From an uncultured Gemmatimonadales bacterium (GTDB taxonomy: Bacteria; Gemmatimonadota; Gemmatimonadetes; Longimicrobiales; RSA9), in contig OY970192.1 of assembly GCA_963708135.1 (NCBI GenBank), positions 5,184,001 to 5,248,000 on the forward strand: a stretch of DNA of 64,000 nt, in the 5' to 3' direction. Shown piece after piece: positions 1,414 through 35,568 of the stretch. Every line of letters starts with the position of its first letter. Position 1 is the stretch's first letter. The notes below the pieces were generated by a model, which saw only the letters and a program-made list of their open reading frames with translations, ran no database searches and had not been told where the DNA came from. Both the position numbers and the translations under genes were made by a program.

Positions 1414-2661
1414 ATGGTCGATATAGCGCGCGCACCGCGGAAGAAGCGCAAACCCTGGATCTACGGCGGCATCGGCGTCGCGCTGGTGGCGATCACGACG
1501 GTGGCGCTGGCGCGGCTGAAGCCGGCGGCGCCGACGGTTGATGCGGGCACGCTCTGGCGCGACACGGTGAAGCAGGGGACGATGCTGCGGGAGGTGCGCG
1601 GGCCGGGCACGCTCGTGCCGGAGCAGATCCGCTGGATCAGCGCGCTCACGCCGGGCCGGGTCGAGCAGATCCTGAAGCAGCCGGGGCAGCCGGTGGAGGC
1701 GAACACGGTGCTGCTGGAGCTGAGCAATCCGGACGTGCAGCTGCAGCTGCTGGATTCGGAGCGGCAGCTCTCGGCGGCGCAGGCGGACCTGGTGAACCTG
1801 CGCTCGTCGCTCGAGCAGGGGCGGCTGAACCAGGAAGGGACCGTGGCGACGGTGCAGACGCAGATGAACGATGCGCAGCGGACGCTCAAGGTGGACGAGC
1901 AGCTCGCGGCGCAGAAGCTGGTGTCGGACAACGACCTGAGCCATGCGCGGGAGAGCGCGGCCGAGCTCGAGCAGCGTTACCGGCTGGAGAAGCAGCGGCT
2001 GGAGGTGCAGACGGCGGCGATGAAGCAGCAGCTGGCGGTGCAGGAGAGTCAGATCAAGCGGCTGGAGGCGATCGTCCAGTTCCGGCGCAGCGAGATCGAG
2101 GGCATGAACATCCGGGCGGGCGGCGACGGCGTCCTGCAGGAGCTGCCGCTGCAGGTGGGCCAGTGGGTGACCTCGGGGACCACGCTGGCCAAGGTGGTGC
2201 AGCCGGGCAAGCTCAAGGCGGTGCTGCGGATCCCGGAGACGCAGGCGAAGGACGTGGTGCTCGGGCAGGAGGCGTCCATCGACACGCGAAACGGTCTGAT
2301 CCCCGGCCACGTAAGGAGGATCGACCCGGCGGCGCTGAACGGGACGGTGGGGGTGGACGTGTCGCTGGAAGGCGATCTGCCGAAGGGCGCACGGCCGGAC
2401 CTGAGCGTGGACGGCACGATCGAGATCGAGCGGCTGAAGAACGTGCTGTACGTGGGCCGGCCGGCGTACGGCCAGGCGGAGAGCACGGTGGGCCTGTTCA
2501 AGGTGACGAACGGTGGTGACGAGGCCGTGCGGGTGAACGTGAAGCTGGGCCGGGCGTCGGTGAACACGATCGAGGTGCTCGGCGGGCTGAACAAGGGTGA
2601 CGTCGTCATTCTGTCCGACATGTCGGCGTGGGATGCCGTGGACCGCGTGCGCCTGAAGTAG
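1414..2661 (+). CDS. Efflux periplasmic adaptor subunit (HlyD/MacA-like)
   Basis: N-terminal TM anchor, lipoyl-like halves (GRVEQILKQPGQPV; GVLQELPLQVGQWV), long coiled coil, GLNKGDVVI C-terminus. Confidence 0.92.
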   Translation: MVDIARAPRKKRKPWIYGGIGVALVAITTVALARLKPAAPTVDAGTLWRDTVKQGTMLREVRGPGTLVPEQIRWISALTPGRVEQILKQPGQPVEANTVLLELSNPDVQLQLLDSERQLSAAQADLVNLRSSLEQGRLNQEGTVATVQTQMNDAQRTLKVDEQLAAQKLVSDNDLSHARESAAELEQRYRLEKQRLEVQTAAMKQQLAVQESQIKRLEAIVQFRRSEIEGMNIRAGGDGVLQELPLQVGQWVTSGTTLAKVVQPGKLKAVLRIPETQAKDVVLGQEASIDTRNGLIPGHVRRIDPAALNGTVGVDVSLEGDLPKGARPDLSVDGTIEIERLKNVLYVGRPAYGQAESTVGLFKVTNGGDEAVRVNVKLGRASVNTIEVLGGLNKGDVVILSDMSAWDAVDRVRLK

Positions 2662-2691
2662 GCGGATCCCCAACACGATCAGGAGGCCTGA

Positions 2692-3441
2692 ATGGAGCAA
2701 GCGATGGAGCCCCTCATCCGGCTGGACGCGGTGAGCAAGATCTTCTTCACCGATGAGGTGGAGACGCACGCGCTGGCCAGCATCCACCTGGAGATCAACA
2801 ACGGCGAGTACATCGCCATCGCGGGCCCGTCGGGCTGCGGCAAGACGACGCTGCTCTCGATCCTGGGGCTGCTCGACTCGCCGACGGAGGGCGTCTACAC
2901 GCTGGACGGCAAGCCGGTCTCGGGGCTCTCCTCCTCCGACCGGGCGCGCATCCGCAACCGGGAGATCGGCTTCATCTTCCAGGCCTTCAACCTGATCGGC
3001 GACCTCACGGTGTACGAGAACGTCGAGCTGCCGCTCACCTATCGCGGCATGTCCTCCGGCGAGCGGAAGGAGCGTGTGCAGGCGGCCCTCGAGCGGGTGG
3101 GCATGTCGCACCGCATGAAGCACTATCCGTCCCAGCTCTCCGGCGGCCAGCAGCAGCGCGTGGCGGTGGCCCGCGCCATCGTCGGCAAGCCGCTCATCCT
3201 GCTCGCGGACGAGCCGACGGGGAACCTCGACTCGCGCAACGGCGAGGCCGTGATGGACCTCATGCGCGAGCTACACCGCGACGGCGCGACGATCTGCATG
3301 GTCACGCACGACCCCCGCTACGCGCGCTACGCCGACCGCACGCTCCACCTCTTCGACGGCCAGGTGGTGAAGGACGAGAAGAGCACAGACGCGCACGCGG
3401 TGGAGGAGCTCGAGGAGAGCGGGTTCGAGCTGGGCGACTAG
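2692..3441 (+). CDS. ABC transporter ATP-binding protein (MacB/LolD type)
   Basis: GPSGCGKT, LSGGQQQR, ILLADEPTGNLD, VTHD; AGGAGG RBS. Confidence 0.96.
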   Translation: MEQAMEPLIRLDAVSKIFFTDEVETHALASIHLEINNGEYIAIAGPSGCGKTTLLSILGLLDSPTEGVYTLDGKPVSGLSSSDRARIRNREIGFIFQAFNLIGDLTVYENVELPLTYRGMSSGERKERVQAALERVGMSHRMKHYPSQLSGGQQQRVAVARAIVGKPLILLADEPTGNLDSRNGEAVMDLMRELHRDGATICMVTHDPRYARYADRTLHLFDGQVVKDEKSTDAHAVEELEESGFELGD

Positions 3442-30430: not shown

Positions 30431-30973
30431 ATGGATGGGACCCGCCTGGGCGAGGCCTTCCTCGCCGACGTGCTCGCCACGTTCGAGCGCCAGAAGGAGC
30501 GCGCCGACCGCGCCCTCGCGCAGCTCGGCGAGGACGAGCTGTTCCTCGCGCCCGATCCGGAGGCCAACAGCGTGGCCGTGCTGATGCAGCACCTGGCCGG
30601 CAACATGCGCTCGCGCTACACCGGCTACCTCACGACCGACGGCGAGAAGCCCGACCGCAACCGCGACGCCGAGTTCGTGGTCGCGCCCGGCACCACGCCG
30701 GCGGCGCTCCAGGAGCGCTGGGAGGAGGCGTGGGCGCTGCAGGACGCAACGATCGGGGCCCTGTGCGCCGCCGACCTCGAGGCGACGGTCCACTACCGCG
30801 GCCGCGCCGAGACGGTGCTCCAGTCGCTGCTGAAGCAGCTCGACCATGCCGCGCTGCACGTCGGCCAGATCATCTACCTCGCCCGCCACATCCGCGGCTC
30901 GGCGTGGAAGACGCTGACGATCGAGCGCGGGAAGACGAGGGAGTACCACGACAGGATCGGCTACCGGCCGTAG
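30431..30973 (+). CDS. DUF1572 / DinB-like protein
   Basis: NSVAVLMQHLAGNMRSRYT..TTDGEKPDRNRDAEF, HAALHVGQIIY. Confidence 0.88.
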   Translation: MDGTRLGEAFLADVLATFERQKERADRALAQLGEDELFLAPDPEANSVAVLMQHLAGNMRSRYTGYLTTDGEKPDRNRDAEFVVAPGTTPAALQERWEEAWALQDATIGALCAADLEATVHYRGRAETVLQSLLKQLDHAALHVGQIIYLARHIRGSAWKTLTIERGKTREYHDRIGYRP

Positions 30974-32055
30974 GGCGGGCCCGTGCCGGGACCGCCCGGT
31001 GCGATCCGCAGCTCCGGGCCGCCGCGGGCGGCGCGCAGGCGCTCCTCGGCGAGGCGGTCGGCGGCGACGTCGGTGGTGATCCCCTCGGCGGCGGCGGTGT
31101 CCAGGAGGCGGAGCACGGTGTCGTGGATGCCGCGCACCTTCTCGAGCGTGCGCTCGCTCGCCCAGCCGACCACCTCGCGGCAGCCGTTGATGACGCCGCC
31201 CGCGTTGGCGATATAGTCGGGGATGTAGAGGATGCCGCGCTCGGTGAGAGCGCGGCCGTCGCCCGGCCCGAGCAGCTGGTTGTTGGCCGCGCCGGCCACG
31301 ATCTCGACGCGCAGGCGCGGGATGCTCCTCTCGTTCAGCACGCCGCCCAGCGCGCACGGGGCGAAGACGTCGGCGCTCTGGTCCAGGATCTCGCTGGTCG
31401 GCACCACCCGCGCGTCGTGGTCGGCCGCGAGCCGCGCCGCCTTGGCGCCGTCCACATCGCTCACGATCAGCCGGGCGCCCGCCGCGGCGAGCAGCCGGCA
31501 CAGCGCCGTCCCGACGTGGCCGCACCCCTGCACGGCGACGGTGCGGCCGGCGAGGGAGCCGTTTCCCCAACGCCACTGCGCCGCGGCTTCCATCGCGCGG
31601 AACACGCCGAGCGCCGTGTACGGCGAGGGGTCGCCGGAGAGGCCCGGCAGCCCGGCGACGTGCAATGTCGCCTCGCGCACGACCTGCATGTCCGCGGGTC
31701 CCGTTCCCACGTCCTCGCCGGTGATGTAGGTGCCACCCAGCCGCTCGATGAAGCGGCCATGCGCGCGCAGCACCTCGCGCCGGTCGGCGCCCGGCTCCGG
31801 CTCGAGGATCACCGACTTGCCGCCGCCGAGAGGGATATCCGCCGCAGCGTTCTTGTAGGTCATCCCGCGCGCCAGCCGCAGCGCGTCCGTGATGGCGTCC
31901 TCCTCCGTCTCGTAGCGCCAGAAGCGCGTGCCGCCCACCGCCGGCCCGAGCGTCGTCGAGTGGATGGCGATGACGCCACGGTACCCCGCGGCGGGGTCCT
32001 GGCAGAACAGGAGCTGCTCGTGGCCGAACTCGGCGAGGGAATCGAAGAGCGGCAT
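30961..32055 (-). CDS. Leu/Phe/Val dehydrogenase
   Basis: IAIHSTTLGPAVGGTR, GMTYKNA, GGGKSVI, GEDVGT, GDPSPYTA, VQGCGHVG, GAANNQL. Confidence 0.95.
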   Translation of the reverse strand: MPLFDSLAEFGHEQLLFCQDPAAGYRGVIAIHSTTLGPAVGGTRFWRYETEEDAITDALRLARGMTYKNAAADIPLGGGKSVILEPEPGADRREVLRAHGRFIERLGGTYITGEDVGTGPADMQVVREATLHVAGLPGLSGDPSPYTALGVFRAMEAAAQWRWGNGSLAGRTVAVQGCGHVGTALCRLLAAAGARLIVSDVDGAKAARLAADHDARVVPTSEILDQSADVFAPCALGGVLNERSIPRLRVEIVAGAANNQLLGPGDGRALTERGILYIPDYIANAGGVINGCREVVGWASERTLEKVRGIHDTVLRLLDTAAAEGITTDVAADRLAEERLRAARGGPELRIAPGGPGTGPPYGR

Positions 32056-32266
32056 CCGGAGGCCCGAGGGGAAAGAGGATCGTCGCGCATAATGCAACCG
32101 AGGCCGGGGGCGGGACAAGAATCTGCGCCGAACGCATGGCCTGCGCCCCACACGCCAAGTCCCTATATTGGCCTCCCCTCCCGCGCCCGCCGGAGGGTAC
32201 ACCCGCAGGCAGAGCCGACCCGAACCCCCGAGAGCCATGAGACACCCTGTGTCAACCCCCCTGTGT

Positions 32267-33514
32267 TCAAGCAGCCGCCGCGGTGGGTTCCGCGGGGGTG
32301 AAGAAGGGGATAGCCCGTCCGTGTCGGGAGGGGTCGTAGGTGGACCGATTGTGCCAGCAGCGCCACAGCACGCGGACCCAGGCTCGGGCGAGGATTCGGA
32401 TTGCGTGCGGGTGATCGCAGCCGCGGGCACGGGCGCACTTGTAGACGGCGGCGGCCCAGGGGTGGGCATGGCGGGAGTTGTCCGCCCAGGTGGTGAGGGC
32501 TTGTCGCAGGCGCTTGTTGCAGGCGAAGCGGCAGGCGACGCCGCGATGCTTGCCGGAGCTGTGCGTAACGGGGGCGACGCCGGCTTCGGCGGCGAGCTGG
32601 GCGTCGGTGGCGAAGCGGAGCCGGTCGTCGCCGAGCTCGGCGAGAATCTGGGCGGCATTGATGGTGCCGGTGCGGGGGAAGGACTTCAGGATCTCACCGT
32701 CGGGATGCTGCGCGAGGTGAGCGGCGATGAGCCCGTCGAGCTCGCGGATCTGAGCCACGAGAGGGCGGAGGACGGCGACCAGGGAACGGACGAGCTGACC
32801 TTTGGTCTCGCTCTCGAGCTCGGCGGCCTGCCCTGCGGGGGCGGAGCGGAGCCGCTCGAGGAGCTGATCGACCGGCCGGCGGCCGCAGTAGGCAGTGCGC
32901 TTGAGGAATCGTTCGAGGCGCTTGGGCCCGAGGCGGGCGGCGCTCTCCGGGGTGGGGTAGGCGTCCAGGAAATCGAGGGCGATCGGGCTATCGACATCGG
33001 CGAAAATGGCGGCAGCGCCGGCCCAGAAGCTGTCGAGCAGGCTGCGGAGCTGATTGGCGAGCTGGACGCGGGTCGCGACCAGGTCATCGCGGGTGCGAAC
33101 GGCGGCGCGAAGCGCCTTGGTGCGATCGGAGGGGACCCGGAGCGGCCGGAATCGATGCCCATCGGTACGCAGGACGTCGGCGAGGATGTAGGCATCACCG
33201 GGATCGCTCTTCCCCGGAGCCGCGGCGTAGCGGGGCCGGGTGGCCTTGAGGGCGTTCGGGTGGATCGGAACGACCGGGAAGCCGGCCTCGACCAACGTAT
33301 CCACCAGAAGTCCGGACGGCCGCTCGATGGCGATGGGCAGCTGCGCCGGAGAGCTGACGCGACGCAGGCGCCGGATCAGCTCACTCAGCCCACCGGCCGT
33401 GTGAGGGATGGTGAACGCGTCAACGAGGGCGCCGCTGAGATCGAGCACACAGACGTCATGCTTGTCGCTGGCCCAGTCAATTCCGACGAGGTAGCTTGGA
33501 TCCAGTCCTTCCAC
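32267..33514 (-). CDS. IS110-family transposase/recombinase (DEDD RuvC + Tnp)
   Basis: VGIDWA, AIER, KSDPGDAYILAD, AGVAPVTHSSGK, NKRLRQAL; GGAGG RBS before GTG. Confidence 0.96.
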   Translation of the reverse strand: MEGLDPSYLVGIDWASDKHDVCVLDLSGALVDAFTIPHTAGGLSELIRRLRRVSSPAQLPIAIERPSGLLVDTLVEAGFPVVPIHPNALKATRPRYAAAPGKSDPGDAYILADVLRTDGHRFRPLRVPSDRTKALRAAVRTRDDLVATRVQLANQLRSLLDSFWAGAAAIFADVDSPIALDFLDAYPTPESAARLGPKRLERFLKRTAYCGRRPVDQLLERLRSAPAGQAAELESETKGQLVRSLVAVLRPLVAQIRELDGLIAAHLAQHPDGEILKSFPRTGTINAAQILAELGDDRLRFATDAQLAAEAGVAPVTHSSGKHRGVACRFACNKRLRQALTTWADNSRHAHPWAAAVYKCARARGCDHPHAIRILARAWVRVLWRCWHNRSTYDPSRHGRAIPFFTPAEPTAAAA

Positions 33515-33544
33515 GCCTCACCTCCGAGCAGAGATTCACTCCCT

Positions 33545-33765
33545 CGCTCCGGCGTTGGAAGGTCTCACCGATCGCTCACTGAAAGGCGCTCTCGGCTTCA
33601 GGTGCCGTGGCGCTACACCCTGTGGTCGGTTGGGGCCTTCCACGCCGGGCAGGGGAGCGGGTCTCATGCGGGCCGTCGAGCGGCAAGCGACGCTGGCTCT
33701 CCCTACCCGGACGCCGAAGCACTTCTCTTGAGCGGCGCGAATCTACGCCCCGCTGAGGGTAAGGT
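33545..33765 (-). ncRNA. Putative IS110 bridge RNA (target- and donor-binding loops); ends approximate
   Basis: Two stem/internal-loop domains carrying CACAGGGTGT (left donor), CAGTGAG (reverse complement of right donor) and CATGAG (reverse complement of right target). Confidence 0.82.
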
Positions 33766-33771
33766 GCACCA

Positions 33772-35568
33772 GTGAGCGCGCACCCTTCCCGACCCGAAGG
33801 TCCGTCCTCCTTCTCCGCTTCCCTGTCCGGCGTGGAGCCGACGGCGCCCGTGGCCGGCGCGGCGGCCGGCGCGGCGCTGCCGCCGGCGCGCCTCGACCGG
33901 CGCCGCTTCATGGCCTACTTCTCGGCGGCCGGTCTCGGGGGGACGCTCTTCCCCGGCGTGCTGTGGGGGAAGGCGCAGGGACGGGAGGTGACGAAGGAGA
34001 TGGTGAAGGATGCCGAGGCGATCGCGGACCTCGACCTCACCGATGAAGAGATCGAGATGATGCTGGACGGGTTGAACCGGAACCGGCAGGCCTATGACGC
34101 CATCCACGCGGTGACGCTGGCGAACGCGGTGGCGCCGGCGGTCCACTTCGACGTCCGACCCCCCGGGACGGAGGTGGCGACGGGCCCCGACGTGGTGCGG
34201 CCGGCGGCGCCGGGGAAGCTGCGCCGCCCGGCGAACCTCGAGGAGGTGGCGTTCTGGCCGGTGACGCACCTGGCGGAACTGGTGCGGACGAAGCAGGTCA
34301 CCTCGACCGAGCTGACGAAGATGTACCTGGGCCGGCTGAAGAAGCATGGGGACCGGCTCCAGGCCGTGATCACGCTGACGGAGGAGCGGGCGCTCCGGCA
34401 GGCGGCGCAGGCGGACGCGGAGATCGCGAAGGGACGCTACCGCGGCCCGCTGCACGGCATCCCCTGGGGCGGCAAGGACCTGCTGGACGTGAAGGGGTAC
34501 CGGACCACCTACGGCGCCAAGCCCTACGAGAACCAGACGCTCGACGACGACGCCACGGTGGTGCAGCGGCTCGACGCCGCGGGCGCCGTGCTGGTGGCCA
34601 AGCTCACGCTGGGCGCCCTCGCCATGGGCGACGTCTGGTTCGGCGGCAAGACTCGCAACCCCTGGGATCTCGAGCAGGGCTCGAGCGGCTCCTCCGCCGG
34701 GCCGGCGGCGGCCACGGTGGCCGGGCTCGTCGGCTTCAGCATCGGGACGGAGACGCTCGGCTCGATCGTCTCGCCGTCCACGCGCTGCGGCGCCTCGGGG
34801 TTGCGCCCGACCTTCGGCCGGGTGCCGCGCACGGGCGCCATGGCGCTCTCCTGGAGCATGGACAAGATCGGCCCGATCTGCCGCGCCGCCGAGGACTGCG
34901 CGCTGGTGCTGCGCGCGATCAAGGGGCCGGACGGGCAGGACCTCACGGTCTACGACGCGCCGCTCCGCTACGACGCCTCCGTCAAGCCGGCCGACCTGCG
35001 GATCGGCTACTACAAGAGCGCCTTCGAGGGCGACTACCCGAACCGGGAGTTCGACCAGAAGGCGCTGGACGTGCTGCGGGACCTGGGCGCCCGCCTCATC
35101 CCCTTCGAGCTGCCGACGACGTACCCGCTCGGCGCGCTGCGCATCATCCTGAACGCCGAGGCCGCCGCCGCCTTCGACGAGCTCACCCGCAGCGGCCGCG
35201 ATGACCTGCTGGTCAGCCAGGACAAGAACTCGTGGCCGAACTCGTTCCGCACCGCGCGCTTCATCCCGGCGGTCGAGTACCTGGAGGCGAACCGGATCCG
35301 CACGCTCATCATGAAGGAGCTGCACGAGGCGATGGACCCGATCGACGTCTTCGTCTCGCCGTCGTTCCGCGGCAGCACGCTGCTCATGACCAACCTGACG
35401 GGGCAGCCCACGGCCGTGGTGCCCAGCGGCTTCACGGACAAGGGGACGCCCGTCAGCATCTCGTTCGTCGGCAAGCTGTGGGGGGAGGGCGCCGCAGTCG
35501 AGCTGGCGCGGGCCTACCAGGCGGCGACGGACTTCAACACGAGGGTGCCGCCGCTGTTCGCCGTGTGA
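33772..35568 (+). CDS. Tat-exported amidase-signature enzyme; native ATG replaced by IS-derived GTG
   Basis: LDRRRFMAYF twin-arginine motif; GPLHGIPWGGKD, GSSGSSAG, GTETLGSIVSPS. Confidence 0.92.
   Translation: MSAHPSRPEGPSSFSASLSGVEPTAPVAGAAAGAALPPARLDRRRFMAYFSAAGLGGTLFPGVLWGKAQGREVTKEMVKDAEAIADLDLTDEEIEMMLDGLNRNRQAYDAIHAVTLANAVAPAVHFDVRPPGTEVATGPDVVRPAAPGKLRRPANLEEVAFWPVTHLAELVRTKQVTSTELTKMYLGRLKKHGDRLQAVITLTEERALRQAAQADAEIAKGRYRGPLHGIPWGGKDLLDVKGYRTTYGAKPYENQTLDDDATVVQRLDAAGAVLVAKLTLGALAMGDVWFGGKTRNPWDLEQGSSGSSAGPAAATVAGLVGFSIGTETLGSIVSPSTRCGASGLRPTFGRVPRTGAMALSWSMDKIGPICRAAEDCALVLRAIKGPDGQDLTVYDAPLRYDASVKPADLRIGYYKSAFEGDYPNREFDQKALDVLRDLGARLIPFELPTTYPLGALRIILNAEAAAAFDELTRSGRDDLLVSQDKNSWPNSFRTARFIPAVEYLEANRIRTLIMKELHEAMDPIDVFVSPSFRGSTLLMTNLTGQPTAVVPSGFTDKGTPVSISFVGKLWGEGAAVELARAYQAATDFNTRVPPLFAV

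Follow-up and report, generated by a model that had tools for sequence, protein, structure and literature searches.

An IS110-family transposon of a widespread clade inserted directly behind start codons, with an antisense frame open from the host codon to a regenerated start

The stretch of DNA analysed here (the window, 64,000 nucleotides (nt) in length) covers positions 5,184,001-5,248,000 in the 5.45-Mb genome (72% G+C) of an uncultured Gemmatimonadales bacterium (GenBank contig OY970192.1), and carries an insertion element of the IS110 family in the start codon of an amidase gene. Elements of this clade insert under the guidance of a bridge RNA directly behind an NTG codon, with a CT/AG core and always antisense to the host gene. 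The recombination site is NTG-AG|CG, typically at Met-Ser starts, and a single antisense frame stays open, in phase, all the way between the host codon and a (G/A)TGA overlap at the far end. The best explanation of these features is that the element is a bridge-RNA transposon of a widespread clade that appears to be specialised for start codons without silencing the genes it enters. We infer ribosome relay and polarity avoidance from signatures of selection and from insertions in single-copy, usually essential genes: it is likely that a translational relay makes insertion at a start codon nearly harmless, as a variant of the hed (antisense frame) arrangement of IS900. With somewhat less confidence, we also lean towards a cross-phylum clade with "translational transparency", i.e. 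a start-codon guide, a donor arm that rebuilds the start, and an entire element that is open in antisense.

The element and its reading frame at the amidase locus

The host ATG at 32237-32239 (plus strand) is the original amidase start and now opens the antisense read-through frame. It belongs to ATGAG (32237-32241) at the left junction, a sequence found there in all four copies of the element in this genome, while the right junction reads GTGAG (33772-33776); TGAG is common to both, so that the element boundary is ambiguous within 4 nt. The AG core, which is CT in element orientation, has its left copy at 32240-32241, and the element body lies on the minus strand at 32242-33774 with AG on each side, its 1533 nt and one 2-nt core giving a 1535-bp insert. 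Excising the insert restores ATG-AGC-GCG-CAC. From the host ATG a hed-like open reading frame (ORF) of 512 codons plus stop (32237-33775, plus strand) crosses the whole element and ends at a TGA (33773-33775) that overlaps, as GTGA, an element-supplied GTG (33772-33774) replacing the amidase ATG in the same frame. Five nt before this GTG there is a Shine-Dalgarno-like AAGGTG (33761-33766, plus strand), conserved in relatives as [AG]AGGT or AGGGT. An earlier, sequence-only reading had pointed out the TGAG at both junctions with the N-terminus restored by deletion, the 512-codon frame with its overlapping in-frame GTG, and an AAGGT ahead of that GTG, all of which we confirmed. The amidase gene with the split start (33772-35568, plus strand; PF01425) encodes 598 amino acids (aa) with a twin-arginine (Tat) signal at about residue 42; the protein begins MSAHP, and that of an orthologue (L022; L numbers denote loci) MSEHP.

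The element's own genes are read from the minus strand. A transposase (bridge recombinase) gene of 415 aa (32267-33514), which contains no CTA, TCA or TTA codon, matches PF01548 at 2.4e-37 and PF02371 at 2e-17 in Pfam, and NCBIfam NF033542 ("IS110 family RNA-guided transposase") with 204.7 bits at a cut-off of 140. The left end (LE, 33515-33774) encodes the bridge RNA, with a 5' hairpin followed by target-binding and donor-binding stem-loops in the consensus fold. The right end (RE, 32242-32266), conserved in relatives, reads TTGACA-CAGGGTGT, and its last 9-10 nt form the left donor arm. TTGACA (32250-32255) is likely the -35 box of a promoter at the circle junction: as read from the sequence, circularisation would bring TTGACA of the RE and (C/T)ACC(T/C)T of the LE to a distance of 18 nt, the likely -10 box at this locus being CACCTT, the complement of AAGGTG. 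No tip-to-tip terminal inverted repeat was present among 25 listed pairs (of 46 inverted pairs found), and no Rfam family matched the element at E values up to 1. Terminator-like sites numbered two in all, both on the minus strand in the upstream intergenic region.

Taken at this locus alone, the open frame is unremarkable. It is the codon-aligned antisense frame of the transposase gene, in which stops correspond to the sense codons TTA, CTA and TCA, and these are rare in a 72% G+C genome. The same frame is stop-free in 60.6% of 371 coding-like ORFs of 400-500 codons from this genome, and the 257-nt non-coding end was open in the read-through frame in 1129 of 5000 dinucleotide shuffles; an open frame is expected here by chance about once in 8 cases (~0.13). 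Adding the 1-in-3 chance of TGA landing in frame brings the single-locus odds to a few per cent, which is weak for a feature chosen post hoc. Open antisense frames are also present in three IS110-type genes that belong to another clade but reside in the same genome; these frames extend more than 200 codons beyond the gene ends, and the genes cannot discriminate as controls because a third-position G+C of 0.93-0.95 opens antisense frames in them too. These genes (L115-L117, at 810663-812048, 815040-816398 and 838393-839652) are clustered within 30 kb. Only through comparison with relatives does the feature exceed chance.

Conservation of the antisense frame among relatives

With a protein-guided scan covering one genome per species we detected 141 relatives, and 80 loci (54-89% identical) were kept. 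They span Gemmatimonadales, Longimicrobiales, Rokubacteria, Acidobacteriota, Actinomycetota, Chloroflexota, many Alphaproteobacteria and others. In 49 of the 80 loci the conserved tips (RE ...TTGACACAGGGTGT-CTCA; LE CTCA(C/T)TG....ACC(T/C)T) delimited both ends, and together with the window copy these loci make a set of 50 elements; the other 31 loci were excluded for an end off the contig or too much divergence. The LE tip was absent from a Mesorhizobium pMLa plasmid locus (L120).

Insert lengths range from 1457 to 1655 bp with 24 distinct values, and 44 of the 50 are 2 mod 3. The host-codon frame has a single stop, the terminal TGA overlapping the element's GTG or ATG, in 41 of the 50 elements, while the other two frames contain 6-20 stops. 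Phase is also kept in the parts: between the LE tip and a conserved transposase motif 17 different lengths occur, from 238 to 400 nt, all 1 mod 3 except 282 and 372, and the RE lengths of 14, 20, 29, 32, 41, 131 and 197 nt are all 2 mod 3. The regenerated start codon is GTG in 32 elements and ATG in 18. Exceptions to the length rule include L063 (1516 bp, against 1517 in its kin), in which the transposase frame is broken, and L068, for which our script chose a second RE-like site (the first site gives 1490). In L035 the phase is lost and the element sits at a non-start site, which fits the relaxed selection that would be expected if selection acts only at starts.

Stops in the non-coding ends were counted in 45 elements with an intact transposase (L063, L064, L067, L068 and L070 were dropped), grouped into 36 clusters below 88% nucleotide identity. 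The host frame contained 4 stops, the other two 77 and 86, although these counts are not independent events, the other-frame stops lying partly in conserved motifs. By cluster, the ends are stop-free in the host frame in 33 of 36, compared with 2 and 3 of 36 in the other frames. The end-to-end open frame that the sequence-only reading described at the amidase is thus shared by other copies and homologues, in the 41 of 50 elements counted above. Since the contrast is partly inherited through the conserved motifs, lineage-specific inserts were examined separately; these amount to 1174 nt, RE insertions of 168 and 102 nt included, and carry 1, 8 and 12 stops by frame. Within the 36 transposase genes a single CTA, TCA or TTA codon was seen where a crude model, based on each gene's own third-position A usage, predicts 154. 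Ordinary genes reach 32% (2175 ORFs of this genome) or 25% (20 host genes adjacent to relatives) of the model expectation, so the model overshoots, and a calibrated expectation is about 40-60 antisense-stop codons, still against 1 seen. Four-fold degenerate sites are identical between clusters at 0.49, compared with 0.45 expected from composition, at 55-65% protein identity; being near saturation, they indicate that the absence of antisense-stop codons is maintained in each lineage and not inherited.

These comparisons bear on the simplest alternative, in which high G+C content leaves the frame open by chance and the landing on ATG reflects only a short RNA-guided motif. Open antisense frames are indeed common in this genome, and the single-locus probability given above suits such an explanation. 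It does not account for a frame-specific avoidance over 36 diverged clusters, for 1 antisense-stop codon where some 40-60 are expected, for 44 of 50 insert lengths being 2 mod 3, or for a host frame that is open in elements of 62-64% G+C as well (L077 and L067), and we regard it as hardly tenable.

A second alternative is that the antisense ORF encodes a functional protein ("Hed"), for example a regulator of transposition, which borrows the expression signals of the host gene, the regenerated start and the overlap being side effects. This is the published reading of the IS900 ORF, judging from the title of Doran 1997 as cited in PMC8141618, and an open frame with indels of 3n fits it equally well. 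The product has no Pfam match, and AlphaFold2 run on an alignment of 31 antisense products gave a predicted local distance difference test score (pLDDT) of 38 with no secondary structure. Moreover, the first codon positions of the ORF, which are synonymous sites of the transposase gene, are nearly saturated, and the invariant residues coincide with the DNA and RNA elements at either end. There would be no need for a protein-coding frame to run up to the last triplet of the element, as it does in 41 of 50, and copies at non-start sites would have no means of expressing the protein. We consider a functional Hed protein unlikely.

Bridge RNA guides, target sites and interrupted genes

The consensus fold of 27 diverse LEs (RNAalifold) consists of two stem-loops that enclose large internal loops, 27 of its 38 pairs being supported by compensatory changes, and corresponds to the layout reported for IS621 (PMC11208160); it replaced a single-sequence fold of the LE, which was uninformative (z = -2.0). 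In element orientation the target, made up of left target, core and right target (LT-CT-RT), reads ..CG-CT-CA(T/C)G.., and the donor junction reads ..CAGGGTGT-CT-CA(C/T)TGG... All four guides could be assigned on the minus strand. The right target guide (RTG, GCCCGCAUGAG, 33663-33673, also listed as inverted repeat I19) lies in the 3' strand of the first loop and pairs with CT-CATGCGGGC, i.e. the start codon and the bases upstream of it, its reverse complement being core plus flank. Covariation supports the pairing: RTG and flank agree in 46 of 46 elements over 5 nt and in 34 of 43 over 7 nt (in four elements the loop pattern gave no RTG loop), and the matched variants include CTCAC.., CTCATAC, CTCATTT, CTCATCC, CTCAAGCG, CTCTTAT and CTCCTCC. 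The left target guide (LTG, CAGCGUCGCU, 33686-33695) ends in CGCU, which matches the flank CG-CT; the match covers 4 nt at the window copy and 7-9 of 10 positions in some other elements (L061, L074, L087, L090 and L100). The left donor guide (LDG, CACAGGGUGU, 33615-33624), in the second loop, is identical to the RE tip, and this holds in 50 of 50 elements with at most 1 mismatch and with covarying variants. The right donor guide (RDG, CAGUGAG, 33575-33581) is complementary to the LE tip CTCACTG, again in 50 of 50 (32 with C:G and 18 with T:A at the variable base). As the regenerated start codon has this variable base as its first letter, the RDG in effect reads that codon.

Two rules follow from the guides. 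With the RTG fixed on CT-CA(T/C), which is (A/G)TG-AG on the coding strand, and the LTG ending in CGCU, recombination takes place at NTG-AG|CG. The donor right arm CA(C/T)TGG mimics the target right arm, so the far junction becomes (G/A)TG-AG-host and the protein is left unchanged. Among the four sites in this genome, the guides of the window element fit that of another copy, at an rnfD-family gene (c3), best, the RTG matching over 11 of 11 nt there and over only 6 (CTCATG) at the amidase site, and the window copy thus looks like an insertion at a partial match. In some lineages (L070, L074, L087, L090 and L096-L100) the RTG has been reprogrammed away from ATG/GTG, to CTCTTAT, CTCCCCCT, CTCCTCC or CTCAAGCG, and the flanks of these lineages match their new guides; one of five CTCAAGCG copies stands at a gene start (L099, an FGase gene with a TTG codon).

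The four copies in this genome show no more than 2 differences between them, and all lie in C|ATGAG ... CAGTGAG|C. After removal of the insert the ORFs are 598 aa (c1, the amidase), 337 aa (c3), 219 aa (c4) and 20 aa (c2). Copy c3 interrupts an RnfD-family gene whose Pfam match runs from profile position 2 at residue 11, with GGAAGGAGG 10 nt upstream, and codon-position G+C profiles place the beginning of coding at the ATG for c1, c3 and c4. Genome-wide, 65 of 664 CATGAGC..G motifs (9.8%) are start-like, against 3 of the 4 occupied sites, the start-like calls coming from one crude classifier.

At the RE junction, 35 of the 50 elements have ATG as the host codon, 6 have GTG and 5 have TTG, and the remaining four combine an altered RTG with another host codon. 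For a census of sites, c2-c4 were added to make 53 copies, 6 of which were uninformative (fewer than 5 flank codons). At 34 of the 47 remaining sites, the ORF that begins with the element-borne start is 80 codons or longer, or is still open after 40 or more codons where the locus ends. When 35 downstream ORFs were searched against Pfam, 25 matched a family, and in 17 of the 35 the domain begins at profile position 1-3 within the first 28 residues, as in true N-termini. The families in question are PhzF, MerR, ABC_tran, Resolvase, a restriction enzyme, Response_reg, GFO_IDH_MocA (twice), Acyl_transf_3, CTP_transf_3, NifU_N, FAD_binding_3, MurJ, Iso_dh, RibD_C, FGase and RnfD. At one locus (L052, 2-1222, minus strand) the host ORF fuses response-regulator receiver and LpxC deacetylase domains in one frame. 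In a Variovorax plasmid the NCBI annotation (PGAP) begins an alpha/beta hydrolase at the LE-derived ATG.

Two insertions deserve particular attention. The genome at L069 has a single MurJ match, and this is the gene with the element in its start codon, full-length and open; in the genome of a cultured Roseicella isolate (L061), the single CTP_transf_3 (KdsB-type) match is likewise a full-length, open gene with an interrupted start. The murJ and kdsB genes are usually essential in Gram-negative bacteria, and if they are essential in these organisms, their expression must survive the insertion.

A predicted translational relay and its alternatives

Taken together, these comparative data support the relay interpretation offered by the sequence-only reading, and we propose the following mechanism. 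Ribosomes would load at the host's own Shine-Dalgarno sequence and start codon and translate across the whole element in the frame that selection appears to have kept open, yielding a product without evident function. On reaching the TGA within the (G/A)TGA overlap they would stop and begin anew at the regenerated start codon, presumably assisted by the AAGGTG upstream. Continuous translation would also shield the read-through transcript from premature termination, so that the host gene and the operon genes behind it would remain expressed. The AAGGTG box may serve twice, as a Shine-Dalgarno sequence and, on the opposite strand, as the -10 box of the circle-junction promoter.

Apart from the single-locus odds and the shared motifs already given, several observations weigh against this proposal. 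Thirteen of the 47 informative sites run into a stop within 54 codons and are not gene starts, which indicates that targeting follows the short motif. The sequence-only reading proposed to test whether the flanks of other copies are ATGAG starts: all four copies lie in C|ATGAG|C, and most host codons are ATG, GTG or TTG as counted above, but these 13 sites do not open a gene. They include c2 (L002, 628982-633521; element at 1501-3040 of the locus), which falls within the 3' tail of a gene for an EamA-type transporter encoded on the opposite strand, the EamA domains ending about 58 codons before the junction. The copy on a Mycobacterium avium plasmid (L121) is also at a non-start site. Enrichment at starts may owe much to survivorship, and the figures (about two thirds of sites compared with about a tenth of motifs) probably reflect both the guide and the loss of harmful insertions elsewhere. 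Three elements (L043, L044 and L102), at 1591 bp compared with 1592 in L047, do not keep the phase, and their frame ends 8 nt early. The conservation of AAGGTG need not mean a Shine-Dalgarno role, its complement being a probable -10 box. Essentiality of murJ and kdsB is assumed for the organisms concerned. At the amidase, 41 residues precede the Tat motif, compared with 5-25 in the orthologues listed, and this long N-terminus makes the true start of the amidase less certain than that of rnfD at c3. Finally, an outward promoter inside the element could be another reason why insertions are tolerated; a consensus scan, limited to sigma-70 patterns, detected none. An empty allele of the amidase site was not found and the element itself is absent from the 40 relatives checked; no empty site can be demonstrated because even the closest amidase orthologue, at 68% identity, fails to align in the first ~30 residues.

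The open frame might instead serve the element itself, if transcription and translation driven by the host silenced the transposase and bridge RNA for as long as the host gene is active, rescue of that gene being secondary. The strictly antisense orientation of all copies is consistent with such self-silencing, as is the lack of an obvious promoter for the integrated bridge RNA and transposase, whose -35 and -10 boxes lie at opposite ends (compare the portion of PMC11208160 available to us). Interference of this kind needs transcription, not a frame open to the last codon, and it leaves unexplained the regenerated start and the intact single-copy murJ and kdsB-type genes. Self-silencing could coexist with the relay, but as the reason for the open frame it seems to us quite improbable, even more so than a functional Hed protein.

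Our comparisons with the two nearest known systems, IS900 and IS621, draw on the accessible portions of PMC8141618 and PMC11208160, respectively. The hed ORF of IS900 runs antisense to the transposase over the full 1451 bp of the element and has no ribosome-binding site or start codon of its own (PMC8141618), and the precedent invoked in the sequence-only reading is to this extent borne out. IS900 prefers CATGNNNNNNTCTCCTT as its target and enters it between the Shine-Dalgarno sequence and the ATG (PMC8141618); on the host strand the target presents Shine-Dalgarno sequence, spacer and ATG. Both elements belong to the IS110 family, insert in one orientation at translation-initiation signals and carry an element-spanning ORF on the opposite strand. 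They differ in target, the IS900 sequence CATG-N6-TCTCCTT being replaced here by ..CG-CT-CA(T/C)G.. with the crossover directly behind the start codon. A further difference is that the present element restores the start codon by itself and closes its frame with a stop/start overlap. The first bases of IS900, as quoted in PMC8141618, suggest that IS900 regenerates the Shine-Dalgarno sequence much as the present clade regenerates the start codon.

The nearest mycobacterial match, on the M. avium plasmid mentioned above, is 55% identical to the window transposase; its 1517-bp insert has TCA as the core, and the frame opened by the host ATG closes at a TGA overlapping a GTG. From these features, the IS900 type (known to us by published description) and the present clade probably belong together. 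In 1997 Doran et al. reportedly described IS900 of M. avium subsp. paratuberculosis with hed as a "host expression dependent" ORF, and the question raised by that name would gain a testable answer in the relay.

With IS621 (Durrant et al. 2024, PMC11208160) the present clade shares an LE-encoded RNA with target- and donor-binding loops and a CT core. In IS621 the LTG and LDG pair with bottom strands and the RTG and RDG with top strands, as the guides of the present clade would too, and in IS621 a promoter is rebuilt across the RE-LE junction of the circular form (PMC11208160). The present RTG differs in being nearly fixed on the start codon, and the donor right arm imitates the target right arm. 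A term search of PMC11208160 returned no mention of start codons or antisense ORFs. Within the full-text literature, most subscription journals being out of reach, we found no report of start-codon regeneration, stop/start overlap, relay or such selection signatures in these elements and no link between a hed-like ORF and bridge-RNA guides, and with the same limited coverage the only related account was that of the IS900 hed ORF.

Unlike the present elements, IS621 targets repetitive extragenic sequence. More distant parallels can be drawn as well. In bacterial operons, translation is coupled at overlapping stop and start codons (ATGA, GTGA). The present elements have the same 4-nt overlap (41 of 50) and a Shine-Dalgarno-like sequence inside the upstream frame; however, the upstream "gene" is the antisense strand of a mobile element with a seemingly irrelevant product, and the coupling is predicted. 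Self-splicing introns and inteins are conceptually similar as intragenic mobile elements that cancel their own damage, but they repair RNA or protein, whereas here the repair would be at translation initiation with the element staying in the mRNA.

If the relay operates as proposed, every Met-Ser start, those of essential genes included, would be a safe harbour for the element, and a mobile element would cancel its own damage at translation initiation. This would explain the persistence of such elements in the start codons of murJ, kdsB, rnfD and sufU, and it would mean that the recombinase gene, the guide RNA and the promoter halves are all constrained to be stop-free on the opposite strand. 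The clade also offers a natural target rule for a bridge recombinase (RTG fixed on NTG-AG, donor arm mimicking the target). The relay would further suggest a design for engineered insertions that silence neither a gene nor the operon genes downstream. For annotation, carrier genes begin at an element-derived GTG or ATG, and the antisense ORF of 500 codons is readily taken for a gene or disregarded altogether.

Some minor observations concern the ends and surroundings of the elements. The LE tip with a short flank is tandemly duplicated in several relatives (L122 at 1468-1550, L053 at 1206-1245 and L097 at 1116-1245), and in L122 the host gene starts at the outer copy; motif repeats near the 5' end of IS900 occur at two loci (PMC8141618, as far as accessible). 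Contigs of four DNA runs, in pieces of at most 551 nt, contained no joint across the element and no circle junction, three apparent joints having been disregarded for sides of 21-28 nt. One contig of run X1 exits the LE tip (33778) into non-amidase sequence, which could be another insertion site in that sample. Upstream of the amidase, a Glu/Leu/Phe/Val dehydrogenase gene (30961-32055, minus strand) is divergently oriented, and the 180-nt spacer between the two genes should contain both promoters.

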